Assembly (NCBI GenBank): GCA_035936155.1
Contig: DASYWJ010000034.1
Coordinates: 66,586 to 130,585 of the forward strand
Direction: 5' to 3'
Origin: Tepidisphaeraceae bacterium
GTDB lineage: Bacteria > Planctomycetota > Phycisphaerae > Tepidisphaerales > Tepidisphaeraceae
Length of the DNA stretch: 64,000 bases
Positions within the stretch are counted from its first letter, which is position 1, and every line of letters begins with the position of its first letter. The notes below the pieces were generated by a model, which was not told the origin of the DNA, made no database searches, and saw nothing but the letters and a program-made list of their open reading frames with translations. A program made the position numbers and the translations under genes. Shown here one piece after another: positions 450 through 42,396 of the stretch.

Positions 450-455
450 GGGGGT

Positions 456-3452
456 TCAATTCGCCTTCGTCGGTTGAACCGGCAGCGGCGGCAGCGCGGG
501 GTTCGCGTCGATCGGCTGCGTCCCCTTCAGCAGTACCTCATGCGGGGGAACGGGTTGAAGGTTCTTCGTCGATTCCGGATCGGCCGCGGCGCGGTAGAGG
601 TTGTCGCGCACAAGACGGGCAGCGGGATCGATTTCGGCGCTGGCGGCGAGGTCCAGGTCGCAGATCCACAACCGCCCGCGGCCGAGCGGAATCTCGCTCA
701 TCACGACGCGATACTGGTCCGGCACCTTCTCAGCGGGAATGTACGAGTGAGCCGGGATGTATCGGATCAGTTCCCGCGCCCTGGCCCCGGGTTTGAGGCG
801 ATGGCTGGTGCCTGCGACGTAAGCGCGCCAGTCGTTCTTGCGCGCCCACCACTTGATGTCCATCGGCTGAAGATTCTCCGCCAGCTTCGTGCCCCGTGCG
901 GGGTACCAGTCGGCGAACTCGGCGAAGTCCGGCTTCTCTGGGGTGCCGCGGATGTCGAGGAGGTCGTCGGGGAAGAGCTTCAGGATTTCTTTGGAGGGGG
1001 AGAAGACGATCGCGGTCGCGCCGGATTCGATCTGCTGGCGCAGGTCACCGCCCTCCTTCAGTCCGTCGAGCGACTCATCTGCGTTTACAACGATGACGCC
1101 GTCCGAAGGCCGCTGCTCATCGGTGGGCCCTGGGAAGATCTCGATTGGATCGGTCGTGCCCGAGACGTGCTGCCCGTCGCGCGTCTTGAGCATCAGGATT
1201 AGCTCCGTGCGCCGGCGAGCCTCCCTGCCCGCGGGCAGTTTAAGCGTGACCGGAAACTTCTTCGTGGCGTAGTACGGAAGCTGCGCGACGTTGGCCAACT
1301 CCTGCGAGACGCTGCTCTCCCGGCCGATCGTGGCGATGAGACGCAGGTCCTTGAGGTCGCGGCCTTGCTCGTCGTCGTTGGTGATGTAGACGCTCGTCTC
1401 GATCGTGTCGCCAGCGAAGAACCGGCGCTGATGCGTCTCCAGCGCCAGGCCCACGGGCGCGAAGGCGTCCTTCACCGCCTCAAGCACCGGATAGGGCGTC
1501 GCCTCCGGAAGATAGCTGTGGCGGAACCAGCACTCGGCGGAAAAGAGCGAGAAGCCGGCCGTCTTGTCGCCGCGCTCGAAGCGAAGCTGCTCGGCCCAGC
1601 GCTTGGTCACCTCCGCGTGCTCGGCGAGGAAGATGGCGGGGTCATTGCCGGGGTAGGCGTACACGCCGACCCACGCCTGTGGGGTGACGAGATCGCGCGT
1701 GTAACGCAGGACGGGCAGGCCGGTGTCCAGATCCGGATAGCCCGATGACATTTCCTGACCGATCAGCGGGCGGTCCGGGTTGGCGCGATAACTCGACGTG
1801 TCCACGACAAACGGCGAATCGGCATACCACCCGCTGTACTTGTGCATGTCGTCGACGTCGCCGTCGTACATCCCTGCCGGCTTCAGCGTGGTCTCGTAGA
1901 ATTTTTCCTCTCGGACATAGTCGGAGGAGACCACGATCGGGTGGTTCGGCGCGAGCTGTTTCGTCTGTTTCGCGACGTCGGAGAGGATCTGCCACTTCTT
2001 GAGGTTCTCCTTGTCGCGCAGGAGCATCTCGTTGCCGACGGTGAAGATGAAAACGCTGGGGTGGTTGCGGCAGCGCTTGACCACGTCGGCGTTCTCCATC
2101 AGCCAATGCTGCACGATCTCCGACGGCGGCATGACCTCATGGCCGATCTGGTCGCTCCGCCCGGCAAACGCCCAGGGGCGGATGCCCTCGATGCTGACCG
2201 CCAGGCCGATCTCGTCGGCGGCGTCCAGCCAGGCCTCATTCCACGGCGTGCAATGCGTGCGCGTGGAGTCGATATTGGCATCGTGCAGCATCTGGATGAG
2301 CTTGCGCGGCAGCTGCGGGTCCCATGGGTTCTTACCGTACGGGAGCTGGTTGGCGCCGCGCATCCAGTACCGCTTGCCGTTGAGGTAGAGCTGGTTGCCC
2401 TTCACCTCGAAGGTGCGGAAGCCGACGTTGTGGATCCAGCGGTCGGAGTACGATCCATCCGGTTGTTCATCGAGGGTCACCTCCAATCGGTACAGATTCG
2501 GCTCGGCCGGCGTCCAGAGCTTGGGCTTGAGGGCCTCGAAGTGGACGTTGACGAGGTCTGTCGCGCTTGCGGCGCTGGCGATGCCTCCCACCTGCTCGGC
2601 GAGCTTCTCGTTCGTCTTCAGATCCGTCAGCGTGACTTTATACGTCCCCGCCGGCTGGCGGAGTGTGATCTGGATATCAGCGCCGCTCACCGTCGGCTGG
2701 AACCATACGTCATCGATCCGGTTGGGCCCGCGCACCACCAGCTTCACTGGCTGCCAGATGCCGTACAGGTCGTACGCGCGGTTGTCCTGGTTCGGCGTGA
2801 GGGGGCCGAACATGCCCTTGCTCATCGAAATCACTTTGGCCGCGGAAAGGTTCACCGTCACCGCTTCGCCGAGGTTCCCACTCGTCGGCGGGATCTTTTC
2901 CATGCTCACCCACATCGCCAGCGTGTTCCTGCCGGGCTTGAGGTGCGGCGTGAGGTCGTAGCTGAACCGGCTGAACATGCCGGCGTGCTGGCCCAGCTCG
3001 TGGCCGTTGATGAACGTGCGGCTGCGCATGGCGACACCGTCGAACTCGATCCACAGGTGCCGGCCCTTCGGCAACTGCGGGACCTCGATGTCCAGGCGAT
3101 ACCAGCCGTCGTCGCTCTTCTCGGTGTCGAAGCCAAGCTTGTCGAGCCGCTCCTGCTCCCATTTCTTGAAATCTTCGGAGTCGTCGAGCCACCATTGAAT
3201 GCGGCTGAGCATCTGCGGGACAGGGGCGGGGTGGTAGCCGGAGGGTTCGGTCGACGACTCGGGCTTCTCTCCGTCGTCCAGCGCGTAGGTCGGCTTGAAG
3301 AGCCACTGACCGGTGAGGTCGATGGTCGTGCCGGGGGTGAGCTTATCTTCGGCAAGCTTCACGCCCGCCAGCGTCGCTTGCGCGGACGCCGCGGCCGTAC
3401 ATAGCGCCGTCAGCAGGAACATGGCCAGCAGTATGCTCTGACTTTTCAACAT
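456..3452 (-). CDS. Secreted glycoside hydrolase family 2 (beta-galactosidase/beta-glucuronidase-like)
   Basis: The tracked ORF is 456..3581. The likely true start is the ATG at 3452 (MLKSQSILLAMFLLTALCTAAASAQA, a signal peptide), preceded by a GGAGG Shine-Dalgarno. The protein has a GH2 N-terminal sugar-binding domain (LWIEFDGVAMRSRTFINGHELG...) and a TIM barrel with VGNEM (acid/base) and HCTPWNE segments. Confidence 0.8.
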   Translation of the reverse strand: MLKSQSILLAMFLLTALCTAAASAQATLAGVKLAEDKLTPGTTIDLTGQWLFKPTYALDDGEKPESSTEPSGYHPAPVPQMLSRIQWWLDDSEDFKKWEQERLDKLGFDTEKSDDGWYRLDIEVPQLPKGRHLWIEFDGVAMRSRTFINGHELGQHAGMFSRFSYDLTPHLKPGRNTLAMWVSMEKIPPTSGNLGEAVTVNLSAAKVISMSKGMFGPLTPNQDNRAYDLYGIWQPVKLVVRGPNRIDDVWFQPTVSGADIQITLRQPAGTYKVTLTDLKTNEKLAEQVGGIASAASATDLVNVHFEALKPKLWTPAEPNLYRLEVTLDEQPDGSYSDRWIHNVGFRTFEVKGNQLYLNGKRYWMRGANQLPYGKNPWDPQLPRKLIQMLHDANIDSTRTHCTPWNEAWLDAADEIGLAVSIEGIRPWAFAGRSDQIGHEVMPPSEIVQHWLMENADVVKRCRNHPSVFIFTVGNEMLLRDKENLKKWQILSDVAKQTKQLAPNHPIVVSSDYVREEKFYETTLKPAGMYDGDVDDMHKYSGWYADSPFVVDTSSYRANPDRPLIGQEMSSGYPDLDTGLPVLRYTRDLVTPQAWVGVYAYPGNDPAIFLAEHAEVTKRWAEQLRFERGDKTAGFSLFSAECWFRHSYLPEATPYPVLEAVKDAFAPVGLALETHQRRFFAGDTIETSVYITNDDEQGRDLKDLRLIATIGRESSVSQELANVAQLPYYATKKFPVTLKLPAGREARRRTELILMLKTRDGQHVSGTTDPIEIFPGPTDEQRPSDGVIVVNADESLDGLKEGGDLRQQIESGATAIVFSPSKEILKLFPDDLLDIRGTPEKPDFAEFADWYPARGTKLAENLQPMDIKWWARKNDWRAYVAGTSHRLKPGARARELIRYIPAHSYIPAEKVPDQYRVVMSEIPLGRGRLWICDLDLAASAEIDPAARLVRDNLYRAAADPESTKNLQPVPPHEVLLKGTQPIDANPALPPLPVQPTKAN

Positions 3453-3460
3453 AGCCTCCG

Positions 3461-3568
3461 TCATTGTCATCCTGAGGTACATGGGTACTTGCGCAGCGGG
3501 TGATCCAAGGATCTCCACCATTCCAGTGCGCAGAACTTTTTCGGAGTACCTCAGTCTCAGGATGACAC
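3461..3568. repeat. REP/MITE-like palindromic element, copy 1. Terminal inverted arms are TGTCATCCTGAGGTAC and GGAGTACCTCAG(TCTCAG)GATGACA.
   Basis: The arms are near-perfect reverse complements flanking about 65 nt of unique sequence. The same arms recur at 14481-14557. The element lies between the gudD stop and the GH2 start. Confidence 0.7.
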
Positions 3569-3593
3569 CTTGCACTCTCACGCGCGGACGAGC

Positions 3594-4835
3594 TCAAAAC
3601 TTCATCTCCGGCACCCGCGCATCATTGGGGTCGGCCCAGCGGTTGTTCGGAATCGTCGGTGCCCAGCCGGGGCGGAGCGGGTCCTGGTCATAAGGATAGC
3701 CGTCGAGCTTCTTGTAAAGCTCCGCGTACTTTCCGAGCTTCTCGCGGTCGAGCTTCACGCCCAGCCCGGGACCGTTGGGCACTTTCATGCTGCCGTTCTC
3801 GTACACCATCTTGCCGCCCTCGATGATGTCGTCGACCAGCTGGTGATAATGCGCATCGGCGGCGAAGCTGAGGTTCGGGATGCACGCGCCCAGGTGAAGC
3901 ATCGTCGCGAGCTGAATCCCCAATTCGCCCGATGAATGCACCGCCACGCCCATCTGAAAAGTCTCGCACACGCCGGCCGCTTTGATGCACTGGCGGATGC
4001 CGCCCCAGAACGTCGTGTCGAGCAGGATGACATCGACGGCGGTGTCGAGCACGTTGGCCGAGAGCTGCTCGAAGCCGACGACGACGGTGTTGGTGGCGAC
4101 GGGGATGCGCACCATCTGCCGCACCCGCCGCATGCCGTTGATGCCGAAGACGGGGTCTTCGAAGTAGTCGTTATGCAGACCCTCGATGCCCTGTCCGAAG
4201 CGGATGGCCTGCTCGACGGACCACACGCCGTTTGGATCAACGCGGAAGCTGTCGCCGGGCAACGCCTTCGCCAGCGCGCGATAGCATTCCAGCTCGTACT
4301 CGGGATTGAACACGCCGGCCTTGAACTTATGGGCGCTGAACCCGTGCTTCTGCTTCAGCTCCTTCGCGTGGGCGACGAGCTGCTCGGGTGTGCGCACTTC
4401 TCCAGAGCGGTCGCCATTGGGGTATCGGAAGAACAGGTAGGACGCGAAGGGCACGCGGTCCTGGAGCTTCCCGCCGAGGATGTCGTAGACGGGGACGTTC
4501 CAGCGCTTGCCGAGGATGTCGAGGCAGGCGAACTCCAGCGCCGCCAGCACCTGCGTGCGGTTGTTGTAGAGCGAGGCCGTGGGGTTGGCGATGCGGAAGC
4601 GCATCTCCTCCATGTGAGCGGGGTTGTGGCCGAGGAGGTACTTTTTCATCGCACGGAAGGTAGCCTCCGCGCTCTCTCCCCCGCCGCCCATTTCGCCGAG
4701 GCCCGTAATGCCCTCGTCGGTATCCACTTCGACGACGGTGCGGACGAAACGTCCCCAGTGGCAGCCGTTCGCATGTCGCAGCGGCGCTTCGAGCGGGACG
4801 GTGACCGTGGTGGCCTTGATGTCGGTGATCTTCAT
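3594..4835 (-). CDS. gudD: D-glucarate dehydratase (enolase superfamily)
   Basis: Strong similarity to remembered E. coli GudD across the whole length ([21 protein letters not shown] and the C-terminal PGW...NNRW segment). The tracked ORF extends to 4889. I prefer the ATG at 4835 ([13 protein letters not shown]), which aligns with the E. coli N-terminus and leaves the upstream palindrome intergenic. Confidence 0.85.
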
Positions 4836-4854
4836 GCGTTTCGGAGCGGATGAA

Positions 4855-4955
4855 TTAGCCGCAGATGAACGCAGATTAACGCAGATCAATGCAAAGGCAA
4901 AAACACAGTTCTTCTCATTCCTGATCCGCGTTCATCTGCGTTCATCTGCGGCTAA
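4855..4955. promoter_or_regulatory. Large perfect palindrome made of iterated 10-bp motifs (CGCAGATNAA) in the gudD 5' region; putative operator or structured leader
   Basis: TTAGCCGCAGATGAACGCAGAT (4855-4876) is the exact reverse complement of ATCTGCGTTCATCTGCGGCTAA (4934-4955). Inner partial arms are AACGCAGATCA and TGATCCGCGTT. The loop is AT-rich, which is unusual for this genome. The right arm overlaps the TAG stop of the upstream GH10-like gene. Confidence 0.55.
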
Positions 4956-6724
4956 CTGCTCTTGGCGACGCCCCAGTCCTTCTGGATTCTGAGCAGCCGA
5001 TGGAAGCTTTCCTTCGGCGACATGTCCTTGTTCAGCAGCCCGCCGTGCGGCCAGAAGTGGCCGCCGACGTCGGCCAAGTCCCACCACTGCGCGACCTCGA
5101 TCTGTGGATGGCTGTAGCAAAGTGTAAACATTGCCTCGAGCCAGTCTGCCTGCAGCGTCTCGTTCCAGGCCTCGCCGTGCCAGGGCGGCGTTGCCGACTT
5201 GGGCCGCATGCTTTCGGGGTCCTGGCCCGGCTTGGCGCTGGTGGACATCTCGGTGATGTGGATCGGCTTGCCGATCACAAAATGGCGCTGGAGCATGCGG
5301 TCGATCTCGAACACGTCGTAACTTGGGTAGTACAGTTGCAGCCCAAGCGTCTCGAACTCCACGCCGTTGGCAAGGCAGTCCTGCGCAAACGTGAGCGGCG
5401 ACCAGCGACGCGAGCCGTCGCGGTTGCGGCGCACGGCATACTCGGCCCACTGGCAGCAGTGGTTGATCATGCGCTTGATCCGCGGGTGACCCTCGCGTGC
5501 CGCGCGGGTGACGGCTCGGGCCAGATCGAGAATCCGCTCGTGGTCCATGTGCCAGAGGTTGGCCTTGTCGTGCGCCTCGTTGAGGACCTCGACGTGGGGG
5601 ACGCGATCGCCGTACTTCTGGAGGAAATGAGCGCACGTCTGGCGGTTGATGTGCTCGTACAACTGCTTGACGCGCGGGTACGGCCAAGCGGGGTTGTACT
5701 CCCGGCGCGGCTCCGACTGCTCGCCGGTGGGAAGCGTCGTGGCGGGGAGTTCCACCGGCCGGATCCACTCCGGCATCGCGCCGCGGGCCATGTAACAGTA
5801 GCCAAAGCTCTTGGGCGTGATGCCCCGGGCGAGGCACCAGTCGATCGAGCCGTCCATCCGCGCGTAATCGACGTACGGCGGCTCGGGCGTTTTCCAAGTG
5901 TACCACGCGCCGGTGGCAAAATTGAACGCCTGCTCGACCGCCTCGTCGTAGGCGGGAAACTGCCCATACTTCGACACCATCACGCCAAAGCCGAAGTCCT
6001 TGCGCGGCTCGGGGAAGCGGGAGATGCGGTGCTTCGCCGCATTGAGCGCAAACGACTCGCCGGCGTGCATGGCGAGCGACAACGCCTCATACGCCGCCGC
6101 GGTGCTGCTCCCGGAAGACCTGCGACCTTGTTGGAGCCGCACCGCCGCGGCGTGAAGGCGTCGACTTGCAATTACATCGGCGCGCATGCCGGCGGTCGCC
6201 GCCGCACGGATCGCTTCGCGCACGCGGTGCAGGCGCGTCTTGGCGGCCTCGACGACGAAGTCGATCTCGCCAGGCTTGTGGTAACCCAGTCCCTCGTTGT
6301 CTGCGTAGACGTACACCTCGCCAAAGTCCGGGATCTTCAGCCGGCACACGACCTGGATCGGCTCATTGGCGATGGCGACCCGCACCCGCCCATCGGCGCG
6401 GATGATCGCCTGCGGGAGCGGGTCGTTGTTGAGGTCGCGTGCGTGGAGGAGCCGGGCGCGGTCCGGCGCGAGCGACGAGCCGTCGACTTCGGTGAGCATC
6501 ACGCGGAGGTACCCGCGATCCCCGCCGACGGTGGGCGCGTTCGCCTCTTCAGCACCGAGGCCGTGGGAGGGATCGAGATCGGTCTCGCCGGTGGGCTGCG
6601 TGGTCGGGAGGGTGGCGGTTGGCCTCTTGTCCTGCCGGCACCCCGCCAGCGCCGCTGCGGCGGCAGCGGTGCCGATCAAAAACGTACGACGCGCTAGTGG
6701 CTCGTTCATTGGTGCTCCGAACAT
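4952..6724 (-). CDS. Glycoside hydrolase family 10-like (xylanase-type TIM barrel) with Tat signal and lipoprotein Cys
   Basis: RRTFLIGTAAAAAALAGC is a twin-arginine signal plus lipobox. GH10-like motifs are present: FNFATGAWYTWKT, VEVLNEAHD (acid/base) and IHITEMSTS (nucleophile). An alternative start is the ATG at 6709. Confidence 0.65.
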   Translation of the reverse strand: MFGAPMNEPLARRTFLIGTAAAAAALAGCRQDKRPTATLPTTQPTGETDLDPSHGLGAEEANAPTVGGDRGYLRVMLTEVDGSSLAPDRARLLHARDLNNDPLPQAIIRADGRVRVAIANEPIQVVCRLKIPDFGEVYVYADNEGLGYHKPGEIDFVVEAAKTRLHRVREAIRAAATAGMRADVIASRRLHAAAVRLQQGRRSSGSSTAAAYEALSLAMHAGESFALNAAKHRISRFPEPRKDFGFGVMVSKYGQFPAYDEAVEQAFNFATGAWYTWKTPEPPYVDYARMDGSIDWCLARGITPKSFGYCYMARGAMPEWIRPVELPATTLPTGEQSEPRREYNPAWPYPRVKQLYEHINRQTCAHFLQKYGDRVPHVEVLNEAHDKANLWHMDHERILDLARAVTRAAREGHPRIKRMINHCCQWAEYAVRRNRDGSRRWSPLTFAQDCLANGVEFETLGLQLYYPSYDVFEIDRMLQRHFVIGKPIHITEMSTSAKPGQDPESMRPKSATPPWHGEAWNETLQADWLEAMFTLCYSHPQIEVAQWWDLADVGGHFWPHGGLLNKDMSPKESFHRLLRIQKDWGVAKSS

Positions 6725-6912
6725 TTACTCCCCCTCACCGGTATTCCGGAGAGAGGGTTGGGGAGAGAGGCAAGCGGCGCGGCAGACGAAGCATCGGTTG
6801 CGTCGAGAAAACGCCGATCTTCGACGCGAACGATCATCGTTTGTCCGAACGCACCCCGCCCCTCTCCCCTGCCCTCTCCCCGGAGTACCGGTGAGAGGGA
6901 GGACGCCAATCG

Positions 6913-9789
6913 CTAATCCAAATCTGTCTTCACCCCGCCCGTGCCCGTTGTTTCCGCAACCAGGCCGATCTTTGCGGCGCCGGAGTCTTTTGCAGTCTTC
7001 CAGTAGCGCAGCGTCAGGTCCATCGCCGCCTGCGTCACGTCTTCCTGTGTCTTGCCGGTGACGATCAGCTGCTCGCCCTGCTCATTGCTGCCGGGGGCGA
7101 GGCGGATGGTGGGCTTGTCGGCCTTGCCTTTGGAAACGTAGATGATGCCGCCGCGTTTTTTCACGTCGTCGGGCAAGTCGTTGGCCTGAAAGATGTCGAC
7201 TACGCGCCCGGTCGCCGATTCCAGCGTCTGATAGATGACCCACGCCGCCTCGAGCTCCATCACCGATGCCTCGACCGGATAAACCACCGCGATTGGTCGG
7301 TTGAAGTCGAAGTCGAGCGCATTGCTCTCGTAGGCTACTTCCGTGCTCGTCTGCGCGTCCATCTTCGGCGCCCCCGCGTAGCGCGCCTCCGCCCATCCGT
7401 AGCGCGACCCGTCGCCGCATTCAATCCGCAGGAACACGTGATAAAACCCCGGCTTGGCATCGTCCGGCAGCGAGATTGCCATCGGGTAGGTCTTTGATTC
7501 ACCCGGCTCTAATTCGAGCAGGAGCGTGACTCGCGGCGAATGAGCCATTGACGCCACGATGCCGGCAGCCGCCTCCGGCCGGGCGCTGCACTTGAGCGGA
7601 TTGTCGCTGTTGTTCGTGATCGTGAACTCGGCGACGCCGCCGCCGTCTTTGAGCTCGACGACCGGGCGGTTGATCCCGATCAGCCGCGTCGCGCCGGCGG
7701 GGTTTGAATAGGCCTGGATCAACTCCATCATCACCATCGCCTCCGGCTTGGGCCGGCGGCTGAGGTTGAGCAGCTCGTAGTGGCGGATGCCCTTGAGCGT
7801 CGTCGGGCTCATGGCCAGCCCGTCCTGGAACTGGAACTGATAGACGTCGGCGATGGCCCGCGTCTTGAGGATGTTCTCGAAGATCGGCCGGTAAATCTCC
7901 GCCCGCGCCTCGGGTGTCATGCGCGTGAGAAATCTCCAGTTCCACTCGGTGATCACCGGCGGCTTGTTCACCGTCGTCGCATAATCGGCGACGGCCAGCC
8001 CGAAATTCCTTCCGCTGTTGATATTGTCGAGCGAGTCCATGTACGCGTGCGCGCCGACGCGGTCGAACGGGACGCCCAGCGCATTGAGCCGGTCAAACGC
8101 ACCGGTGTTCGTGTGTGCCGTGAGGTGCACGGGCATGTCCGGCGCGACTTCTTTGATCGCCTTATACACGTCCTTCCAGTACTGCACGTCCGCGTCGAAG
8201 ATCTGGAAGATGAGGATTTCGTTGTCGATCTCGACGCCGTCGATCAGGTCGCGGTAGCGCTTGACGAACTTGGCCGTCTCCTCGGGCGAGGTTTTGATGT
8301 CGAGCAGCGCCTTGAGGCCGAGGTTTTTCAACTCCCCGAAGTAGAAGTCGAGGTAGTCATTGCGCTGCTGCTCGGTGAGATACGCTTTGCCGTCTGCATC
8401 GTTGTCCCAGAGCAGCTCGACGTGGTGCAGCCGGATCAGCTCGAATCCCATCGCCTTGGCGATTCGCAGGTCGCGCTTGATGTCGTCGGCGAAGCGCTTG
8501 TACTGCTTGACCGTCTCGGGCGCGAGCGGCCAATAGTAATCCTTGCTCATGCCCGGCTGCTTCAGGGTGACGAAGTTCTCCCCCAGCGTGGAGTACGGGA
8601 AGTAGTTCGTGCCGAAGCGCGTGAACGGAACCCCGAAGGACACCTTCGCGCCGTCTGAGGTCTTTTCCTGCGCGTTGTAGCCGGTGTAGGCGATGAAGTG
8701 CTGATCGGCGCGCTCTTCGCTGATGGGCACGCCGCTGAAGATCATGCGCGATCCGATCAGCAGCCCCTCCCCCGGCGGCGGGAGCACGTTGTGGTCCAAC
8801 CGGGAGAGGTGCTGGCGCAGGTTGGGGCGTGCGATTTCGCTGATCGAGTAAATCGTGTCGCCCTTTGCCTGAGCTTCCTGTGCGACCTGGGCGGTATTGG
8901 CGCCGATCCAGCGCGGGCCGACTTTGTCGGTCTTCTCGCGATGGACTGTGAACGATGGAGTGAAATCCTTCAGCCACAGGGCGGAAGATCCGGGGCTTGC
9001 GCCTGCGGCTGTGAAGGAGGTGTTGATCCAGTCGACCCCACGCTGGAAATACAGGTGCCGGCCCTGCCCGTGACGGAAGGGGCTGTATGCTTGGCCGGTA
9101 AAATCGGAGGTGCGGTTGTCATAGCAGAGCGTGCGCGCGTGAATGCTGGGCTGCTGCCAGCGGCAGATGACGGCGGCGTAGACATCCTCCGTCGGCGCCG
9201 ACTCATTCGTATAGCGCGCGCTCACGTCGAGAAATCCCGCCCGATACGCGCGCAGCTCGACGTCGAGCTTCAACCCCGATCCCGACGCCGAAGCCGACCA
9301 CGTCTCGAACACCGGTCCCTCGCCAGTCTTTCGGAACGACAGCGGCAGCGGAGAGAACCCGGCGGCGAAGTCGCCCTTCGTGTCCAGCGCCTTCATCTGC
9401 GTCTGCGGTCCGTTTGGGTCTATCGGCCGAACGATCACGCCCCATGCGAGTTCGCCGCGGTCCTTCCCGTCGAACGCGATGCGAACCGCATTTGCGTCCG
9501 GCTTCAGCTCCACCCGGCTGCGCATCCGCACGTTGGGCGGGATCTCCAGCGGCGCCTGCACCTTCGCGCCGGCCGGCGCCGACATCACAATCACCGCGTC
9601 ATCCCCCACCTGCTGCGCTGCCGTGGCGCTGTCGGTGAGTTTCACCCCGCGCACCTGCACCGGCATGTGGATGTCAAACGGCTGGTTGTTGACGATGTCG
9701 ATCTGCTGCGCCCATGCGGGAACGACGACGAGGGCAGTGATCCACGCGACGCACAGACCAACGGCAGCGAGCGGTTTTCGTTGGAGCAT
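6913..9789 (-). CDS. Large secreted glycoside hydrolase (GH5-like TIM barrel; family call tentative)
   Basis: The tracked ORF begins with TTG at 9819. The ATG at 9789 gives MLQRKPLAAVGLCVAWITALVVVPAWAQQ, a signal peptide. The central region has a TIM-barrel GH pattern with EIDNEI (acid) and PPVITEWNW (nucleophile). Confidence 0.55.
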   Translation of the reverse strand: MLQRKPLAAVGLCVAWITALVVVPAWAQQIDIVNNQPFDIHMPVQVRGVKLTDSATAAQQVGDDAVIVMSAPAGAKVQAPLEIPPNVRMRSRVELKPDANAVRIAFDGKDRGELAWGVIVRPIDPNGPQTQMKALDTKGDFAAGFSPLPLSFRKTGEGPVFETWSASASGSGLKLDVELRAYRAGFLDVSARYTNESAPTEDVYAAVICRWQQPSIHARTLCYDNRTSDFTGQAYSPFRHGQGRHLYFQRGVDWINTSFTAAGASPGSSALWLKDFTPSFTVHREKTDKVGPRWIGANTAQVAQEAQAKGDTIYSISEIARPNLRQHLSRLDHNVLPPPGEGLLIGSRMIFSGVPISEERADQHFIAYTGYNAQEKTSDGAKVSFGVPFTRFGTNYFPYSTLGENFVTLKQPGMSKDYYWPLAPETVKQYKRFADDIKRDLRIAKAMGFELIRLHHVELLWDNDADGKAYLTEQQRNDYLDFYFGELKNLGLKALLDIKTSPEETAKFVKRYRDLIDGVEIDNEILIFQIFDADVQYWKDVYKAIKEVAPDMPVHLTAHTNTGAFDRLNALGVPFDRVGAHAYMDSLDNINSGRNFGLAVADYATTVNKPPVITEWNWRFLTRMTPEARAEIYRPIFENILKTRAIADVYQFQFQDGLAMSPTTLKGIRHYELLNLSRRPKPEAMVMMELIQAYSNPAGATRLIGINRPVVELKDGGGVAEFTITNNSDNPLKCSARPEAAAGIVASMAHSPRVTLLLELEPGESKTYPMAISLPDDAKPGFYHVFLRIECGDGSRYGWAEARYAGAPKMDAQTSTEVAYESNALDFDFNRPIAVVYPVEASVMELEAAWVIYQTLESATGRVVDIFQANDLPDDVKKRGGIIYVSKGKADKPTIRLAPGSNEQGEQLIVTGKTQEDVTQAAMDLTLRYWKTAKDSGAAKIGLVAETTGTGGVKTDLD

Positions 9790-9901
9790 TCCGGAGGGAA
9801 TCCTCTCGGGCTGGAACAAAGCGATCGGTGCCGGCGAGTGTCCGGCACCGATCGGGAACAGTCAATGCGATCGACTGGCGGGGCGTTTGCCTGCGCCGGC
9901 G

Positions 9902-10768
9902 CTAGTCGAGCGGATAGGGGCCCCATCCCGATTCCGGCGCCCAGACGCCGCCCGTGCGCTCAGTCGAGCCGCCGAAGCGATCCATCGAGGCCCAGATCGT
10001 ACGGAAGTTCCGGTTGGACGCTTCAGGGGCGAAATTGGTCGTCAGGGCCGAGAGCCAAGGCATGAACACCGAGCGCGGCACCCAGACGGCCGACCCGTTC
10101 GCGTAGAGCACCTGCGCCCCCTGATTGTGCTTCAGCTTCAGCCGATCCGGCAATCCGTTGATCTCAGGGCCGTTGATGATGTCGGCAAAGATGGCCTTGT
10201 TCTTCATCTTGCTGAGCTTCGGAAGCTGTGGGAACGTGTGCGGCCTTCCCGGGCCCCCTTCCGGGGGATGGCCCCAATCCAGCTCAGGGCGGCAGCCGTA
10301 GCCGGATCGAACGGTGCCGGGGGCTGTTGCACCGGGCGCGTTGTCGAAATACGCGCGGAACGGCTCGACCTGCGTCTCGTATTTGTGCAGCAGACCGGTG
10401 TACGACGGGCAGAAGAAGATCCTTGGCTCGATCTTGCCGCGCGCGTCCTCGAACAGCTTTCCGAAGGTGGTGAACCGGCTACCACGGATGATGGAGTAGT
10501 TGAACTGACTCTGCTCCACCGTGTCGTCCTGGATTCCGTTGCTGATGAATCCCAGCGGTGCCGCGTCTCGGTGCTTGTGCGCGTACATGATCATCGTCAG
10601 GTGGATCTGGCGAAGGTTGCTGAGGCACGCTGTGCGATTGGCCGCCTCTCGCGCCTTCTGAAGTGCGGGGAGCAGCATGGCGATCAGCACCGCGATAATG
10701 CCAATCACCACGAGCAGCTCGACGAGCGTGAAAGCAAATCTGCGGGTTTGACGGGTCGCGTTACGCAT
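9902..10768 (-). CDS. DUF1559 protein with prepilin-type N-terminal cleavage/methylation domain (Planctomycete pseudopilin-like)
   Basis: The ATG at 10768 with an AGGAGG Shine-Dalgarno gives [55 protein letters not shown], the hallmark DUF1559 N-terminus. The tracked ORF 9902..10957 starts with TTG and has a junk N-extension. Confidence 0.85.
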
Positions 10769-11065
10769 GGACGCCTCCTGCGGTGAGTGTTGATTCGGTG
10801 CGCCCGTAGGTGCACCGCGGCAAAGTCGCGCGACGGCTGAACGGCTCTGGGGTACGGCATTCATGAATTGACAGTCGTTCCCGCCCAGGGCGGCATATGC
10901 CGATTGTATACAACAACCGGGGGTGAGCAAGGGAGTTTCTTGCAGAATCATCAACAATGACTTCGGAATTCTTGCAGATCATTCGCCACGAGTTCAACCG
11001 CCAAGCCGCGAGGTCCCGTTGCGTCTTGGCGAACCTCCGAGTGTAAAGCCGCGCCGGGGCCATTA

Positions 11066-12964
11066 TCACCCCTCGGCCTTGCGCCATGCGGCAAGGGTTG
11101 CGTCGAGGTTGGCGGGGGCTTCCATCATGTAAGCCGCGCCTTCCCGCCGGGCGATCCGCTCGAAACGGTCGATCATGCCGGCGTAGTCCGGGCCCGCGAA
11201 CGCCGACCCGCGCGAGAGCTGGACGTACAGGATTGGTAGCTCGGCCCGCTCGACCCGGTGAAGCAGCGCCTCATTCGAACCAGCCAGCTCCCGTCCGCGC
11301 GCGAAGATGGCGGCGGCGCGGTCGCAGAAGTCTTTCGTCAGAAAGGCGATGTCCATCGGGTAGCGGATTCCGCCCGGCGGCGATTGCAACGCCGCGGCGT
11401 GCGACTCCGCCTGTTCGCGCAGCAGCGCATCGTACTCCATCAGCGCCGGCGCGGCGGCGCCGTAATGGCCGAGGATGAAGTCTCGTTTCAGCGCATTCTC
11501 ATCCAGCGACGGGTCCCACATGAGCTTCGCGATCACCCAGGACTTCAGCTCATCCCGCTCCGCAGGCCCCTGATATCCGCCCTGAGTCATGACGCCTTCG
11601 GCTTTGTTGTCGATCCAGAAGCGGATGTTGCTCGCGATCACCCCGACGTTGGGCATCGGTGCGAGATAGTGGCTGAAGTTGACGTTGTAGTCCCATATGT
11701 ACAGTCGGTCGTGCACCTTTGACCACGACTTGGTCAACGCGGCGACGGGCAGTTGCTCGGCCGGCGTAAACGGCTTCGCCCACGCGCCCACCGTGTCGTT
11801 GCACAAGCGGATGGCGACGTTCTTTCGCGGGCGGATCGTTGTGGGTACGTAGATCGTCTCGAGGTAGGCGAGGGTGTCCACCACGACCTTCGGGTGCGCC
11901 CTCTCCACCGCTTCGGCAACCTGGTTCACGAGGTAAAGCTGGTTGGCCATGTCCGTCCCGCCCTCGGCGGTGCGCAGCTCGGTGCACCTGGGACAATGGC
12001 AGATCTGGTCGCCGGCATTGTCGTTCTTGGAGACGGAGACGATCTCGGCATCGGGATGGTTCTTGAGCGCCGCCAGCACGTTGGCGGTGACGATGCGCGC
12101 GACCTGTGGGTGCGTCGGGCACAGCTGCGCAGCGTAGCGATTGCCGCTGGCGTCCTGCGCGAAGTACTCGGGGTGTTCCTTGAAGTGCGGGTCGACAGGC
12201 AGCAGCGCGGCGTGCGTGTGGACGAACAACCCGCCATAGTCCATTCGGCCGCCGTGGTTTTCAGGCACATGCGCGTCCGGCGCATTGGTGCGGTTGCGCA
12301 GGGACCAGTCCGGGTCGAACGACACCTTGTAGAACGGGTCGCGGAGTTTCAGCTTTGGCGCGTAGGTCCGCGTGACGGGAGCAATGCTGAGCGTCTCTGA
12401 CCGAGGTAGCCGGAAACTGTCCTTCGCGTACCAGCGGCAGCCGAGGTCCTCCTCGAGCAGCGCGTAGACGGCATTAACGACGCCGCGCCCGGGACCGCCG
12501 CTGAGGATCAGTGTCTCACCGTTGACGGCGATGGTGTACTGTTCATCGGGCGCATCGGGATTGGTTGTGAGACGGATCGATTTCGCAACCGGCGACGCCG
12601 CGAGCGGCAGCTCGGCGCCGGTCATCTCCCTGATCCACTGTCGCAGATCGTCGGCAGCTTTTTTCTCCGGGCCCGTCGGCTTCTCGGGAAGTTCGATGCT
12701 GTAGAGCGGCTCTCCGTCGCGCACGAGCGTGAGCGAGGATGCCTCAACCCCCTTGGGCTTGAGCGTGTTGTGCCACTGCTCCGCAATGAGGAGGTGCGGG
12801 GTCACCAGCAGAGCCAGGAGCACGCCAACGCTCACCGTGACACGGGCGTCTCGCCCGCGCCGGTTGCATGGAGCGTCGGGAATCAATCGCTTTTCACCCT
12901 TCCGCTCAGTCAGCACGGGCGGGACGCCCGTGTCACGGTGAGAGTGGTCTGTCGTCTGCATCAT
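11066..12964 (-). CDS. Putative glycoside-hydrolase-like protein (DUF4838-like; family call tentative)
   Basis: The start ATG at 12964 overlaps the upstream stop as ATGA, preceded by GGAGGA. It gives MMQTTDHS... followed by a hydrophobic signal/anchor. A CHCPRC motif and overall length recall DUF4838 proteins. The family assignment is from memory only. Confidence 0.5.
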   Translation of the reverse strand: MMQTTDHSHRDTGVPPVLTERKGEKRLIPDAPCNRRGRDARVTVSVGVLLALLVTPHLLIAEQWHNTLKPKGVEASSLTLVRDGEPLYSIELPEKPTGPEKKAADDLRQWIREMTGAELPLAASPVAKSIRLTTNPDAPDEQYTIAVNGETLILSGGPGRGVVNAVYALLEEDLGCRWYAKDSFRLPRSETLSIAPVTRTYAPKLKLRDPFYKVSFDPDWSLRNRTNAPDAHVPENHGGRMDYGGLFVHTHAALLPVDPHFKEHPEYFAQDASGNRYAAQLCPTHPQVARIVTANVLAALKNHPDAEIVSVSKNDNAGDQICHCPRCTELRTAEGGTDMANQLYLVNQVAEAVERAHPKVVVDTLAYLETIYVPTTIRPRKNVAIRLCNDTVGAWAKPFTPAEQLPVAALTKSWSKVHDRLYIWDYNVNFSHYLAPMPNVGVIASNIRFWIDNKAEGVMTQGGYQGPAERDELKSWVIAKLMWDPSLDENALKRDFILGHYGAAAPALMEYDALLREQAESHAAALQSPPGGIRYPMDIAFLTKDFCDRAAAIFARGRELAGSNEALLHRVERAELPILYVQLSRGSAFAGPDYAGMIDRFERIARREGAAYMMEAPANLDATLAAWRKAEG

Positions 12965-14490
12965 TCGTCCTCCTCGGAGATTTTCCTCCCGGTCTGCCGC
13001 TCGTAATGGCCGCGGCGGGTGTCGATGATCCACTCCGCCAGCGCTGTCGGCGGTGCGTGCTGAATGAAAAGGCTCCACCGCGGGGTGTCGAAGATCGACT
13101 GGTAGTAGAGAAACAGCTCGTGGTGCAGGTGCATGTCGCGGACGATGCGAAACATCTTGTCCTCATCGACGTCGCCCGCGTCGAGCAGACGTCGGCAGGC
13201 GTCGAAATCATGGCGGAACTTCGCGAGGTACTCGTTCTCCAGCCGCTCGGCCTCAGCGATCCCCTGCTCCATCACCGCGAACTGCTCCGGCGTCATCTTC
13301 AACCGCTCGCGCGTGCTCTTCAGCGCCTGCTGCACGTGCGCGTCGATCTTGTCCGGCGGGACGGGCTGCCAGATCGGCTCGCCCTTCTCCTTCGCCGCCT
13401 CTTCCATGCGGCCGAAGATCGACCGACCAAAGAGGATGCCGAGCTGTTTCGCCGTCAGCACGTCGGCGAGCGGACCGGACGTGTACCAGCTCGTCTCGCG
13501 AATGTACTCCCATACCAGCAGCAGCTCGCGCACGCGCCGCAGGTGCTCGCGCAGCGCCGCGTCATTATCGCCGCCCTTCTTCACCAGCGCATCCATCTCC
13601 CGCAGCACCTTCACGAGTGGAACCTGGTATCGCTCCTTGATGAGCTTCTCGCGCACCGTCGTGTCGTAGAACTGGAACAGCCGCGCCTGCTCAGCGGTCA
13701 TTGCACCGTCTTTCGTGAACCGCGCGAGCCGACCGTTCTTCTCGAGCCACGGCTGCAGCGACTCCTCAGGAGGCAGCGCGTATACGCTCGGCGGCGGCGG
13801 GATGATCGGCGCGTGTCGCCGCGGCTTGCTCGGCGTCCCCTCGATCACCAGTTCCGGGCCTTTGCCGTCCCAGTGCTCCGATGAATGGAAGTAAACATGA
13901 TGTCCCCACTCCTTGGCCGGGTCCTGGACGATGACGAGAAGCCCGCCGTTGAACTGCGGCTCCGCCAGCCACCGTCGCACGAGATCGGGCGGGAGCGCAA
14001 ACTCCAGCCACTGCGCCCGATCCACCGGTGCCGTCGCATTGACGAGCGGCCGCTCACCGCCAATCAGCTCGGGGGCAGGACTGGTGCTGCGCGTGATTGC
14101 ATCGGGTTGTGGTGGTTCGCAGATTCCGGTCCCCTCTTGCCAGTTCGCCGACTGCCGCGTTACCTCGTACAGCGCAACGGGAATTTCCGCGCGCTGGATA
14201 AAGTCCTTCGGCTTGTAGAACCGCAGCTTGGCCGACGTCACGTGCTCAATCTGCGTGGCCCGAAGATCGAACCGTACGACAGAGACCGCATAATGCTCCG
14301 CATAGATCCCGCCCATCCGTCCTGCTTCCAGCAGCGGCCCGCCGCCGAAGTTCCAGTTCGCGAACTCGCCGTCGAGCAGCGCAGCATCATCCACGAATGC
14401 GGGGCCGGAGACGGTGAATGTTTCGCTGCGTACAACCGCGCCGAACATGCCCATGCACATCAGGACAATGATAAGCCGCGTCATTGTCAT
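12961..14490 (-). CDS. Secreted hypothetical protein
   Basis: MTMTRLIIVLMCMGMFGAVV is a signal peptide. Codon usage is GC3-rich. The stop overlaps the start of the downstream gene, suggesting translational coupling. The first four codons (MTMT) lie inside the palindromic repeat. Confidence 0.65.
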   Translation of the reverse strand: MTMTRLIIVLMCMGMFGAVVRSETFTVSGPAFVDDAALLDGEFANWNFGGGPLLEAGRMGGIYAEHYAVSVVRFDLRATQIEHVTSAKLRFYKPKDFIQRAEIPVALYEVTRQSANWQEGTGICEPPQPDAITRSTSPAPELIGGERPLVNATAPVDRAQWLEFALPPDLVRRWLAEPQFNGGLLVIVQDPAKEWGHHVYFHSSEHWDGKGPELVIEGTPSKPRRHAPIIPPPPSVYALPPEESLQPWLEKNGRLARFTKDGAMTAEQARLFQFYDTTVREKLIKERYQVPLVKVLREMDALVKKGGDNDAALREHLRRVRELLLVWEYIRETSWYTSGPLADVLTAKQLGILFGRSIFGRMEEAAKEKGEPIWQPVPPDKIDAHVQQALKSTRERLKMTPEQFAVMEQGIAEAERLENEYLAKFRHDFDACRRLLDAGDVDEDKMFRIVRDMHLHHELFLYYQSIFDTPRWSLFIQHAPPTALAEWIIDTRRGHYERQTGRKISEEDE

Positions 14491-14557
14491 CCTGAGGTAC
14501 TCCGACGAATCTCCCGCGTCGATCGCTTGAGACCCTTCGGAGTACCTCAGGATGACA
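14481..14557. repeat. REP/MITE-like palindromic element, copy 2. Arms TGTCATCCTGAGGTACTCC and GGAGTACCTCAGGATGACA form a perfect 19-bp inverted repeat.
   Basis: The arms are the same as at 3461-3568 but the interior is different (about 40 nt). The element overlaps the start codon of 12961..14490 and sits just downstream of the 14578..15900 stop. Confidence 0.7.
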
Positions 14558-14577
14558 GCGACCGAATCGATGCAGCA

Positions 14578-15900
14578 TTACCACCGATACAGTTCCCCAT
14601 CCCCCGCCGCGAGCTTCAGTTGTACCTTCCCGTCGGTCAGCGCGACCTCGCGCCACTCGCCCGTCTGCTTGTCGAGCAGTTGGAGCTTCTTCCCACCCGT
14701 TTCCAGCGTCACGGGAGCGGTCGTCTCATTGCGGTAGTCACGGTTCGCGAACATGGCGTAGCGCCTCTCGCCGGGGCCGTCGAACAGCCCGACCGTGATG
14801 TGCGGGCCGTCGAAGCGCACCGCGTCCTTCCCCGTGTTGATCGTGTCGCCATCCTGGCCCATCTGGATCACCGCCGTGCTCTTCGCCTTCAGCAGGTGTT
14901 TGCCGATCGCCTGCACATCGCGATTGATCCGCTTCACCTCCTCGTACTGGTGCGTACGCGTGCCGTCGAGGTTGATGATGGCCGTGCCCCAATCCTTGCC
15001 CGGCTGCCAGTAGGTGAAATACATGAACCCCTTCCCTCCGTACGCCAGCGTCTGCATTGCCTCGAAGCGCTTTTCGGCCTCGGTGGGCAAGCGGTAGTCG
15101 AAGTGGTTGATCAGCAGCGCGATCTGCCAGAACGGGACATTCGCCTTCAGCGCCTCGCGGCGCACCACCGCCAGGTTCGCGAAGAATCCCGGCCGATCGT
15201 ACTGGTTCATGAAGTGGTAATGGTCGTAGGAAAGGATCGCCGGCTTCACCTCCGCGAGCCAGCGCTGGATGTACTCATCATACGTCGCCGTCCCCAGCCC
15301 GTGCGGCGGGCAGTAGTTCGGGTAAAGATTGACGTAAGCCGGGTGAGTCGGGTCCTTCTCCGCGAGGTACGCGAACGTCTGCGCCAGCGCGGGGAACGCG
15401 CCGGCACCGGGCTCGTCACCGATGAAGTAGCCGGCGAACGCGGGATGATTCCCGTAGTCAGCAACGATCGCGTCGATGCGCTCTTTGCCTTCGCCATTGT
15501 CATCAAATCCCGTCGGCATGCGGTTGTCGTACAGGAATGCCTTGATGCCAACGGCCCGGCAGTAGTCCAGCGTGCGCAGGTTGTCCTCCCGTGTCGGCGT
15601 CCCCTGCTCCAGCCCCGGCATCGCGTGCGTGAATCCGGCGTCGGCGACCTCCTGATAGCGCTCCAGCGAAATGAACTTCACCGGCACGCCGCACCAGAAG
15701 CTGATGGGGAAGACATCCGGCTCCCACTTCGCGGTCGGCTGCGTCGCGGGAGTCGCGGGAGTCGCGGGAGTCGCGGGAGTCGCGGGAGTCGCGGGAGTCG
15801 CGGGAGTCGCGGGCTGCGCGGGCGTCCCGCCGGACAGCACTGACGTGACCATACTGAGCAGCAGTGTGCACAGGAGGAGCGATCTTCCATTCAAGCCCAT
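14578..15900 (-). CDS. Secreted putative glycosidase with a (PAT)n linker; family uncertain
   Basis: Signal peptide, then PAQPATPATPATPATPATPATPATQP, then a TIM-barrel-like body (FWCGVP..., YQEVADAGFTH..., FIGDEPG). Confidence 0.55.
   Translation of the reverse strand: MGLNGRSLLLCTLLLSMVTSVLSGGTPAQPATPATPATPATPATPATPATPATQPTAKWEPDVFPISFWCGVPVKFISLERYQEVADAGFTHAMPGLEQGTPTREDNLRTLDYCRAVGIKAFLYDNRMPTGFDDNGEGKERIDAIVADYGNHPAFAGYFIGDEPGAGAFPALAQTFAYLAEKDPTHPAYVNLYPNYCPPHGLGTATYDEYIQRWLAEVKPAILSYDHYHFMNQYDRPGFFANLAVVRREALKANVPFWQIALLINHFDYRLPTEAEKRFEAMQTLAYGGKGFMYFTYWQPGKDWGTAIINLDGTRTHQYEEVKRINRDVQAIGKHLLKAKSTAVIQMGQDGDTINTGKDAVRFDGPHITVGLFDGPGERRYAMFANRDYRNETTAPVTLETGGKKLQLLDKQTGEWREVALTDGKVQLKLAAGDGELYRW
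15743..15814. repeat. Tandem 9-bp coding repeat (GTCGCGGGA x about 8) encoding the PAT linker
   Basis: Read directly from the sequence: cgtcgcgggagtcgcgggagtcgcggga... Confidence 0.9.
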
Positions 15901-15960
15901 GTCCCTATAAACCGCCGCCGCGCCCGAATGTTGATGTGCAATGCCCCCTGTGGGGTATCA

Positions 15961-16797
15961 TCATGCCAGCGGCAAGAAGCCCTCGCGCGCTTCTGGAGTC
16001 GCGGCGGCGTCGAGGATGCGGCGGATGGTCAAGCTCTCTGCCCGGTCGATGTTCGGCTTACCGGCCTCAAAGAAATCGAGAGTGGCGGCGGCCGTGTCGA
16101 CGAACAGCTTACTCGTCTCGACCTCGATCAGCTTCGTGCCCTTCTCGTCCGTCACGGCGGCGGCGAATGGCGTGCCCTCGGCCGCGTAGACGTTTATTGT
16201 CGCGGTGCGGTCGCCGTCGAAGTCGATCAGGAGCTGTGAATACTTCCCGTCGCCGCGGCGCAGCAGCGATACGGCGCCCGGCCCCATCACGCTGACGACC
16301 ATCTCAACGGGGTGGATCGCGTATTCGCCGAATGAGCTGCCGCCACCCCAGGCGGTCATGTGCCGCACCTCGCGTCCCTTCGCGTGCGCCTGCACGTTCG
16401 TGTAGCGCAGCGCCGACGTCGTCTGCACGGGCACGTTGTGCTTGTCGGCCAGCTGAAAAAGCGTCTGCGCCGTCGCCAGGTCCGGCGCGAATGTCTTGTC
16501 GACGTACGTCGGCTTGCCGAACTGGAAGACGCGCTGGCAGAGCTCCAGGTGCTTGTCCGGGTTGGACGGCGCGAGGACCATGTAGCAGTCGACGGCGCCG
16601 TTGAGCTCCGTGGGGTCGTCGAAGTACGGCACATCGTTCTTCCGCGCCCAGGCGCGCCCTTCGTCCTCATCGAGCGGATGGCAGCCGGCGACGATCGCGC
16701 CGCGGTGCTTCAACTGGTTGCGGTAGCTCTTGAGAAAGATGTTGGCGTGGAAGTTGTCGAGCTTGTAGTCGACGAAGCCGATGCGCTTGCCAATCAA
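15961..16797 (-). CDS. Gfo/Idh/MocA family oxidoreductase (short form)
   Basis: N-terminal Rossmann-like region with [11 protein letters not shown] (equivalent to the EKPLA motif), followed by a C-terminal alpha/beta domain. Confidence 0.6.
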
Positions 16798-40002: not shown

Positions 40003-40953
40003 ATGACCGACGACACGCGCCCCGATCGCACGCCGCTGGTTCCCCCCGGGGGCATCGACCATCATTCTGCCGACATGACCGCGACGTTCGCCGCCGACGT
40101 CACACTCAAACAAGCGCAGGCGGCGCTGGGCCAGCGCGAGCACTGGCTTCCGATCGACGGCGACGAAGACCTGCCGCTCGGTCAGCTGATCGAGCAAAAC
40201 TCGACGGGGCCGCTGCGGCTGGGTTACGGCGCGTGGCGCGACCTGCTGCTGGGGGTGCAGTTTCAGGACGGCCACGGCAAGCTCATTACCGCCGGCGGTG
40301 CGACGGTAAAGAACGTCGCCGGCTACGACCTGACGAAATTCATGGTCGGTCAGCGCGGCGTTTTCGGACAAATCGTGACGCTGACGACGCGGACATACCG
40401 CCGCCCTGCCGTGGCCCTGCTCGCCCGCTTCCCCGCGCGGCAATCGATCATCAACGCCCTGCTCCCGACCGACCATCGCCCGCAGTGGGCGCTGCTCACC
40501 AGGGAGGCGCTGAACTGCGGATACCTCGGTGACGAGCAGTTCGGCGCGTTTCAGGAATCGGGACTGCGGCAGGCCGGCGCGCTGCACGTCGCCCGCCGCA
40601 CGCTTCGCGATGACATCGAGCACCGCGCCGGGCTGTGGTGCTGCTACAACGATCTGGCCCTTCGGACATCGGTTCCCCCGGCGCGCATTGCGGAGTTCGT
40701 ATCGCTCGCGAAGCTCAGCGCCTGGGTCGCCGACGCCGCGTTCGGAATCGTGATCTCCTCGCCCACGTCGGAAACCAGCATCGAAGCGGTGAATCGCGCG
40801 GCGATAAGAGTCGGCGGGACGCTGACGATCACGTACCCACGTCAATCCCGCTTCGAGGTGTCGACAACCGACACCGAACGGGGAATGATTGAACGTCTGA
40901 AGGACGCGTTCGACCCGGAGAACCGTCTGACCCCTTTGCCCTGGCGGAGTTGA
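40003..40953 (+). CDS. glcE: FAD-binding oxidoreductase, glycolate oxidase subunit GlcE-like
   Basis: ATVKNVAGYDLTKFMVGQRGVFGQIVTLTTRTYRRP matches the E. coli GlcE segment. The C-terminal LKDAFDPENRLTP matches LKQQLDPCGVFNP. Confidence 0.75.
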   Translation: MTDDTRPDRTPLVPPGGIDHHSADMTATFAADVTLKQAQAALGQREHWLPIDGDEDLPLGQLIEQNSTGPLRLGYGAWRDLLLGVQFQDGHGKLITAGGATVKNVAGYDLTKFMVGQRGVFGQIVTLTTRTYRRPAVALLARFPARQSIINALLPTDHRPQWALLTREALNCGYLGDEQFGAFQESGLRQAGALHVARRTLRDDIEHRAGLWCCYNDLALRTSVPPARIAEFVSLAKLSAWVADAAFGIVISSPTSETSIEAVNRAAIRVGGTLTITYPRQSRFEVSTTDTERGMIERLKDAFDPENRLTPLPWRS

Positions 40954-42383: not shown

Positions 42384-42396
42384 ATCTCAGGGATGA
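42375..42396 (+). terminator. Short hairpin overlapping the glcF stop (TCATCCTGA-atc-TCAGGGATGA); possible bidirectional terminator between convergent genes
   Basis: Read from the sequence. The arms resemble the CATCCTGAGG core of the REP-like element. Confidence 0.4.

Follow-up and report, generated by a model that had tools for sequence, protein, structure and literature searches.

In an array of co-directional minus-strand genes from a Tepidisphaeraceae bacterium, two small palindromic elements lie immediately ahead of genes for secreted proteins, and on the minus strand both read CCTCAGG-ATG-ACA-ATG-ACG and are open into the downstream ORFs. This arrangement raises the question of whether the repeat is a device that provides start codons to its neighbours, as the initial annotation proposed, or a repeat of another kind whose end happens to resemble a start. 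Throughout, the window is the whole stretch of DNA that was analysed (64 kb), and the source genome was sampled through this window only, which holds two loci.

That the two loci share a repeat, as had been claimed, is confirmed by the 16-mer TGTCATCCTGAGGTAC, which occurs exactly at 3465-3480 and 14485-14500 on the plus strand and at 14542-14557 on the minus strand, giving three matches in the window against 0.22 expected; none of 100 shuffles gave three. Chance palindromes were ruled out by these 16-mer shuffles and by fold z-scores.

Copy 2, 73 nt long (14485-14557), forms an almost perfect palindrome whose arms measure about 29 nt (14485-14513 and 14529-14557), and its minus-strand RNA folds at -58.3 kcal/mol (z = -11.5). 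REP unit A (14485-14513, plus strand; repeat-unit covariance model R1, 34.5 bits, E = 9e-6) contains the exact 16-mer and is made up of a TGTC tag followed by ATCCTGAGG, TACT, CCGACGAAT and a tail; in the minus-strand mRNA it forms the 3' arm of the hairpin. REP unit B (14529-14557, minus strand; R1, 47.4 bits, E = 1e-8) is near the family consensus, and the spacer between the two (14514-14528) is predicted by the fold to form a small apical stem-loop, spacers being different among family copies. Outside unit A lies a duplicated head, CGTCAT (14479-14484), which is ATGACG on the minus strand; the same gCGTCAT-TGTCAT head is present in six other distinct metagenomic copies. The 509-aa ORF downstream is identical to the NCBI entry 'DNRLRE domain-containing protein [Tepidisphaeraceae bacterium]' of 507 aa (P0001, 100% identity), whose annotated start codon is the ATG at 14482-14484 on the minus strand, and a second ATG, that of the inner head, is at 14488-14490 on the same strand. 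In the predicted fold the 3' arm includes AGGAUGACA with the annotated AUG directly after it, at the foot of the stem, and an AGGA lies inside the stem, 5 nt upstream of the annotated start at 14484. On the other side, the TAA stop codon of a 440-aa ORF (14578-14580, minus strand) is 20 nt before the hairpin.

In the 5' part of this 440-aa ORF (15716-15832) a 9-nt unit, GTCGCGGGA, is repeated in tandem about ten times, which would encode a tripeptide repeat near the N-terminus of the protein. Elsewhere in the window, two neighbouring plus-strand genes share a repeated coding motif, GACCCGGCGATGATGGAAGA (Asp-Pro-Ala-Met-Met-Glu-like), at 29620-29716 and 33075-33147.

Copy 1 spans 3465-3567; both loci had been placed correctly at the outset, and the limits of this one were off by about 1 nt. 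Its pairing is confined to an outer stem of 12-16 bp (z ~ -4), and the wider region gives z = -1.1. The left REP unit (3465-3514, plus strand) is decayed: TGTCATCCTGAGGTAC is intact, the unit is broken after GGTAC, and about 22 nt of extra sequence precede CCAAGGATCTCC, with no full unit seen by R1. Pairwise alignment to the consensus shows that the second unit (3539-3567, minus strand) carries a 6-nt tandem duplication (CTGAGA then CTGAGG) and a decayed 3' half-stem, and R1 gives a partial match at 3540-3553 (18 bits, E = 0.04). A census of the window by R1 with filters off returned just the two units of copy 2 and this partial unit. The interiors of the two copies, described initially as unrelated, both hold the rest of the same unit (CCAAGGATCTCC and CGACGAATCTCC), and the central spacers alone differ. 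Copy 1 also has the duplicated head CGTCAT (3459-3464); its minus-strand reading, ATGACG, shares the frame of the GH2 ORF, but the head is probably an untranslated leader. Upstream, an enolase-superfamily (MR/MLE) gene has its stop codon (3594-3596, minus strand) 26 nt before the element.

A further palindrome at 42375-42396 had been regarded as a shorter relative, but is an independent small hairpin, unrelated to the REP. It gave no match to the repeat-unit covariance model even at E <= 10, and what it shares with the element is a 9-mer at chance level; TCATCCTGAG, with at most one mismatch, has nine hits in the window against 3.95 expected, four of the nine being within the two elements. This hairpin (-16 kcal/mol, z ~ -2.6) lies within the 23-nt gap of the convergent ORFs 40950-42383 (plus strand) and 42407-44500 (minus strand), and may serve as a bidirectional 3'-end structure.

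Other intergenic palindromes were seen in the window, and at least five gaps of the minus-strand array (450-16000) hold a long hairpin of some family. The palindrome at 4855-4955 (TTAGCCGCAGATGAACGCAGATTAACGCAGATCA ... TGATCCGCGTTCATCTGCGTTCATCTGCGGCTAA; 34-nt arms, 94% complementary), in the gap separating the enolase-family gene from its minus-strand neighbour, is of a different family with internal CGCAGAT motifs. A third, at 6725-6900 (CCCCCTCACCGGTATTCCGGAGAGAGGG ... CCCTCTCCCCGGAGTACCGGTGAGAGGG), has an arm matching a locus of a Tepidisphaeraceae MAG (L053:7407-7451) at 95.6% identity over 45 nt, so that it belongs to a shared repeat family, and a fourth, at 12828-12945 (CACCGTGACACGGGCGTCTCGCCCG ...; 33-nt arms, 91% complementary), lies just past the stop of the DNRLRE-domain gene (12961).

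Relatives of the element were sought with the 18-mer core GTCATCCTGAGGTACTCC in one genome per species. The core was found in at least 120 stretches, nearly all of them, among the matches listed, from MAGs of Tepidisphaeraceae, Tepidisphaerales and Phycisphaerae, with a few from Thermoguttaceae and scattered ones from other phyla. The idea that only two copies might exist thus fails, as many copies of the family are present in related genomes. A tolerant search of the listed loci gave 99 inverted pairs with tags facing outward and 53 solo arms, some of which are at contig ends or have diverged partners; the dimers are 67-110 nt long, most frequently 75-76, 81 or 87 nt, and their median fold is -59.8 kcal/mol. 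The family consensus is YGTCATCCTGAGGTACTCCGAAGGATCTgGC - spacer - GCcAGATCCTTCGGAGTACCTCAGGATGACR.

Each arm of the consensus is a stem-loop of its own, with a YGTC tag, the half-stem ATCCT-GA-GG, a TACT loop, the half-stem CC-GA-AGGAT and a tail. Ahead of GTCAT, 82 arms have C, 81 have T and 5 have G, A being absent, and the window copies have the TGTC tag with the extra CGTCAT outside it. In the stem, ATCCTGAGG pairs with CCGAAGGAT; pairs 5-26 (AU) and 6-25 (UA) are near-invariant, 7-24 and 9-22 co-vary, and a tandem G-A/A-G mismatch (positions 10-11 and 20-21) interrupts the 9 bp. Covariation is evident in the combinations TCCT/AGGA (195), TGCT/AGCA (14), TCCC/GGGA (8) and TTCC/GGAA (4), and in 59 distinct units double-sided changes occupy 20 cells against 3.1 in shuffles (0 of 500 shuffles as high), with 97% of cells paired against 16-64% in slid-partner controls. 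The TACT loop has the variants TACG, TATT and TGCT, and longer loops occur in related metagenomic units, while the tail is CTG in 79 cases, CTC in 31, CTA in 29, CTT in 16 and CCA in 3. The sense RNA is the more stable in 29 cases and the antisense in 26; there is no transcribed-strand bias in RNA stability, and therefore no positive evidence of selection at the RNA level. At the Rfam gathering score no family was found in the window, and elements in related loci gave sub-threshold miRNA-hairpin noise; a full-text search for GTCATCCTGAG returned unrelated primers only. The element is considered, with a probability of roughly 0.85, to be an inverted HH dimer of a CGTC-tagged REP, a known kind of repeat in a new host lineage.

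Two side observations concern the distribution and context of these units. An identical 26-nt unit (0 mismatches) is present in MAGs of Saccharibacteria, Paceibacterota, Armatimonadota and Thermoguttaceae (L001:6103-6128, L030:2969-2994, L066:33-58, L035, L080, L086 and L092), where contamination is possible, usually beside a different partner (e.g. TGTCATTCTGAGC...GAAGAAT) and with AT-rich flanks. This suggests a unit shared across phyla, or a conserved factor that recognises it, and raises the question of which conserved factor recognises or spreads a repeat that has no known transposase. In MAG DASRRM (SMAG_U4852; L010, L017, L027, L060, L084, L093 and L115), the REP dimer is nested in a longer imperfect inverted repeat (TTTCAGGTTGAT.GAGCGGGCAA ... 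TTGCGC.G.CGCGCC.CCAA.CT), so that a larger composite element carries it.

The resemblance of the element's end to a start codon follows from its anatomy, as reverse-complementing the tag and the first two stem bases yields ATGAC(A/G) (YGTC-AT read as AT-GACR), and every unit therefore has an outward-facing ATG. The Met-Thr-Met-Thr reading derives from the recurrent doubled head CGTCAT-TGTCAT; being the reverse complement of a conserved end, it points to an ordinary selfish or structural repeat and not to a dedicated start-codon device. The explanation that has to be weighed against this is that the element evolved, or was retained, as a translational control device that supplies and then sequesters the start codon and SD-like AGGA/GGAG of secreted-enzyme genes. 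Such a device would account for both window copies being in frame and open into ORFs, whereas in the wider family most duplicated heads run into stops. A metagenome scan for GTCATTGTCATCCTGAGG gave 72 stretches, mostly REP units of many loop types, among which six distinct heads are of the Tepidisphaerales type with C before each; a long coding-like ORF follows about 8 of some 70 distinct duplicated heads, and most of the rest reach a stop within 5-30 codons.

The frame relation is likewise at chance. Gene starts are faced by 68 element ends, which divide 19, 22 and 27 among the three frames, so that 28% are in frame (p = 0.37 against one third), and at 8 of the 68 the ORF is open back to the head ATG; a cruder GC3-based frame test gave 14:15:17, and codon-model gene calls led to the same conclusion. 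With 19 of 68 in frame, the supply of a start codon cannot be upheld as a property of the element.

The placement of the copies also disagrees with a control device. All 82 classifiable copies in the listed loci are intergenic by codon-model gene calls, with 55 in co-directional, 15 in convergent and 12 in divergent gaps (background gaps, 271, 72 and 85). For the 53 co-directional copies with measured distances, the median gap is 39 nt to the upstream stop and 109 nt to the downstream start (Wilcoxon p = 6e-4), which places them near upstream stops and not near downstream starts. In the window, copies 1 and 2 are 26 and 20 nt past the upstream stops (3594-3596 and 14578-14580) within a co-directional array, and so are almost certainly transcribed; no sigma-70-like promoter or U-tract terminator was found at either.

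At copy 1 and at locus L028, comparison of related proteins places the start beyond the element. The GH2 homologue P0047 (MCVKISSLLMTLIVAGLHTVVSAQAT) was aligned with the window protein (MLKSQSILLAMFLLTALCTAAASAQAT), and the signal peptide of the closest homologue, MCVKISSLLMTLIVAGLHTVVSA followed by QAT, corresponds to MLKSQSILLAMFLLTALCTAAASA followed by QAT in the window. This alignment places the probable initiation region at 3447-3459 on the minus strand, with GGAGG at 3455-3459 and ATG at 3450-3452 or TTG at 3447-3449, and the GH2 start is therefore ATG 3452 (or TTG 3449), 12-18 nt downstream of copy 1. At L028, where every one of three GT2 paralogues follows an element, comparing the paralogues likewise puts the start downstream of the in-frame head ATG. 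The possibility that true starts lie past the element is thus realised at copy 1, where the proposed start-codon supply fails; at copy 2 the annotated start at 14484 abuts the element, and the proposal is plausible there. As a separate observation, the L028 paralogues are tandem genes of glycosyltransferase family 2 (L028:4120-6290; 303-313 aa) with an 87-nt REP dimer between each, and the repeats may mark or mediate the tandem gene duplication.

At copy 2 the annotated start against the hairpin and the AGGA within the stem speak for a control device, and this copy can be compared with orthologous loci. In L121 and L194 (70-71% aa identity) both flanking genes are kept and the element is absent, and therefore the copy 2 element is lineage-specific. 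The upstream gene in these loci matches that of the window (...KLAAGDGELYRW*) and is followed without intergenic space, its stop overlapping the downstream start (ATGGTAG or ATGGTGA). From these sequences, copy 2 appears to have split a gene pair that in relatives shows translational coupling. The window arrangement could not be derived cleanly from L121 or L194, as some 20 nt separating stop from element are unexplained and divergence in the signal-peptide region is too great. The ancestral ATG has become GTG in the window and is out of frame, so the copy 2 gene depends on an ATG at the element edge, a point in favour of a control device; the two head ATGs are the only ones that leave a plausible signal peptide, and NCBI takes the second (14484). 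The N-terminus of the L194 orthologue is MVTRL and that of the window protein M(TM)TRL, and both share Thr-Arg-Leu, so that the Thr codon at the least seems ancestral and doubt is confined to the Met; this counts against the element as the source of the whole start. Given the family-wide evidence, a control device is considered very unlikely. The link to start codons arises as a by-product inherent in the tag sequence, with at most incidental use at copy 2, where the supply of a start is plausibly a one-off accident.

A related proposal concerns how the doubled head arose. Where the window has ATGACA-ATGACG-CGG-CTT at copy 2, L194 has GTGACA-CGA-CTC, and C precedes GTCAT in 8 of 8 Tepidisphaerales-type duplicated heads, with GC in 6 of 8. 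On the basis of this one orthologue comparison and the eight heads, gCGTCAT/TGTCAT could record insertion beside a sequence that mimics the tag, as in IS200/IS605 target choice, with ATGACG starts serving as opposite-strand look-alikes that draw REP dimers to gene starts; this is thought unlikely. If it were true, overlapping coupled genes could be split by dimers, which might now and then also contribute a fresh AUG and SD.

The repeat had been called REP-like and not a MITE, and that distinction stands. A classical MITE would be a deletion derivative of an IS whose 16-29 nt terminal inverted repeats are recognised by a mobilising DDE transposase, and the inverted termini, small size (72-110 nt), high copy number and variable interiors of the element are what such an origin would give. 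Its arms, however, fold independently with their own covariation and occur as 53 solo arms, and target-site duplications are absent, direct repeats of k = 2-8 equalling the shuffled expectation in 83 copies at three boundary offsets. Nor was a transposase ORF found between or beside copies in the loci scanned: ORFs bracketed by adjacent copies are MurE-, GT2-, HemA-, FeoB- and UbiA-like housekeeping genes. A MITE origin is accordingly given very little credence. Three six-frame regex scans of the window and more than 190 loci (1.26 Mb), with crude motifs (HUH plus Y..NP; class-3 NHVH ... YV..EQ), also found no Y1/RAYT-like ORF. Since a mobilising enzyme was not found, the case for mobility is made by copy number and by presence or absence at orthologous loci of about 70% identity. 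That the hairpins are intrinsic (Rho-independent) terminators merely sharing sequence is very unlikely, for although they are strong, GC-rich and 20-40 nt past stop codons, the stem has no U-tract, a terminator scan was empty at 3300-3750 and 14300-14750, the gene downstream of copy 2 has no room for a promoter of its own, and the sequence is found in either orientation and also in divergent gaps.

The HH-dimer reading can be set out as follows. Both window loci are most probably HH dimers of a CGTC-tagged REP, REPIN-like in that the two inverted units, facing each other across a variable spacer of 15-60 nt, can pair into one long hairpin. The family has probably spread as non-coding DNA through the intergenic gaps of Tepidisphaerales and Phycisphaerae genomes, copy 2 probably being a fairly young insertion and copy 1 an old, decaying one. 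By folding and by analogy with other REPs, the hairpin may form a structural barrier at the 3' end of the upstream cistron or a site where that end is processed. The copy 2 hairpin may also hide the downstream ribosome-binding region and hinder ribosome loading, which would replace the ancestral translational coupling, so that mRNA protection and RBS occlusion are both candidate effects of the structure. Met-Thr(-Met-Thr) enters an ORF only where the frame happens to fit.

These points bear on annotation and on gene regulation in the group. In GC-rich genomes the frame is often open across the repeat, and therefore callers that take the longest ORF add spurious 'MT...' or 'MTMT...' N-termini; spurious repeat peptides (VILRYSEGS or SEYLRMT) added in this way to real proteins corrupt signal-peptide predictions. 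At copy 2, a REP dimer parts genes that in relatives overlap, and a change in how the pair is co-expressed is to be expected.

Among known systems, MITEs such as Correia/NEMIS and ERIC are co-transcribed, and can create or mask expression signals and be RNase III substrates. The present family is like them in being made of small palindromic intergenic repeats co-transcribed with their neighbours, and unlike them in that target-site duplication is absent and the arms are self-folding REP units instead of simple transposase-binding terminal repeats. REPINs and their RAYT transposases, reportedly the subject of work by Bertels and Rainey in 2011, Nunvar in 2010 and Ton-Hoang in 2012, are closer, with two inverted REP units that form one long hairpin and a dispersed intergenic distribution. 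REPINs occur in tens to hundreds of copies per genome with decaying singletons, to which the family here is likened; some of these REPIN/RAYT features are described in two papers (PMC3733652; PMC6006769). The family is unlike REPIN/RAYT in its tag, which is YGTC and not GT[AG]G, and in that a unit-flanked Y1 (HUH) gene was not seen in the 1.26 Mb sampled.

The closest match is to CGTC-tagged REPs, which are defined by CGTC at one end (frequently TGTC), a stem of 8-9 bp opening with A-T, a 4-5 nt loop and a 3-nt CCA tail (Di Nocera, De Gregorio & Rocco 2013, BMC Genomics 14:522; PMC3733652). They are described as mostly HH dimers with tags outside, spacers of 20-100 bp and no transposase, lying close to upstream stop codons, and the superfamily includes Neisseria dRS3 and Rickettsia RPE-4 and RPE-6 (PMC3733652). 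The article also states that most REPs found at annotated N-termini are extragenic and that the ends of GTAG REPs frequently supply TAG stops (PMC3733652). By this published description the present element is like them in its unpaired YGTC tag, its 9-bp stem with A-T/T-A first, its 4-nt loop and probable 3-nt tail, and also in its HH dimers, its intergenic position near the upstream stop and the lack of any transposase found; that target-site duplications are absent likewise agrees with the published account of CGTC REPs. The occasional overlap with annotated ORF N-termini, probably untranslated, is a further likeness. It is unlike them in its CTN tail in place of CCA, its tandem G-A stem mismatch and its head-duplicated variant CGTCAT-TGTCAT. 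The hosts given in the article for CGTC repeats are Proteobacteria, Chlorobi, Bacteroidetes, Spirochaetes and Thermotogae, with Planctomycetes absent from those named there (PMC3733652), whereas the host here belongs to Planctomycetota (Phycisphaerae, Tepidisphaerales). The element is not a new kind of system, and its presence here would extend the host range of the CGTC-tagged REP superfamily to Planctomycetota.
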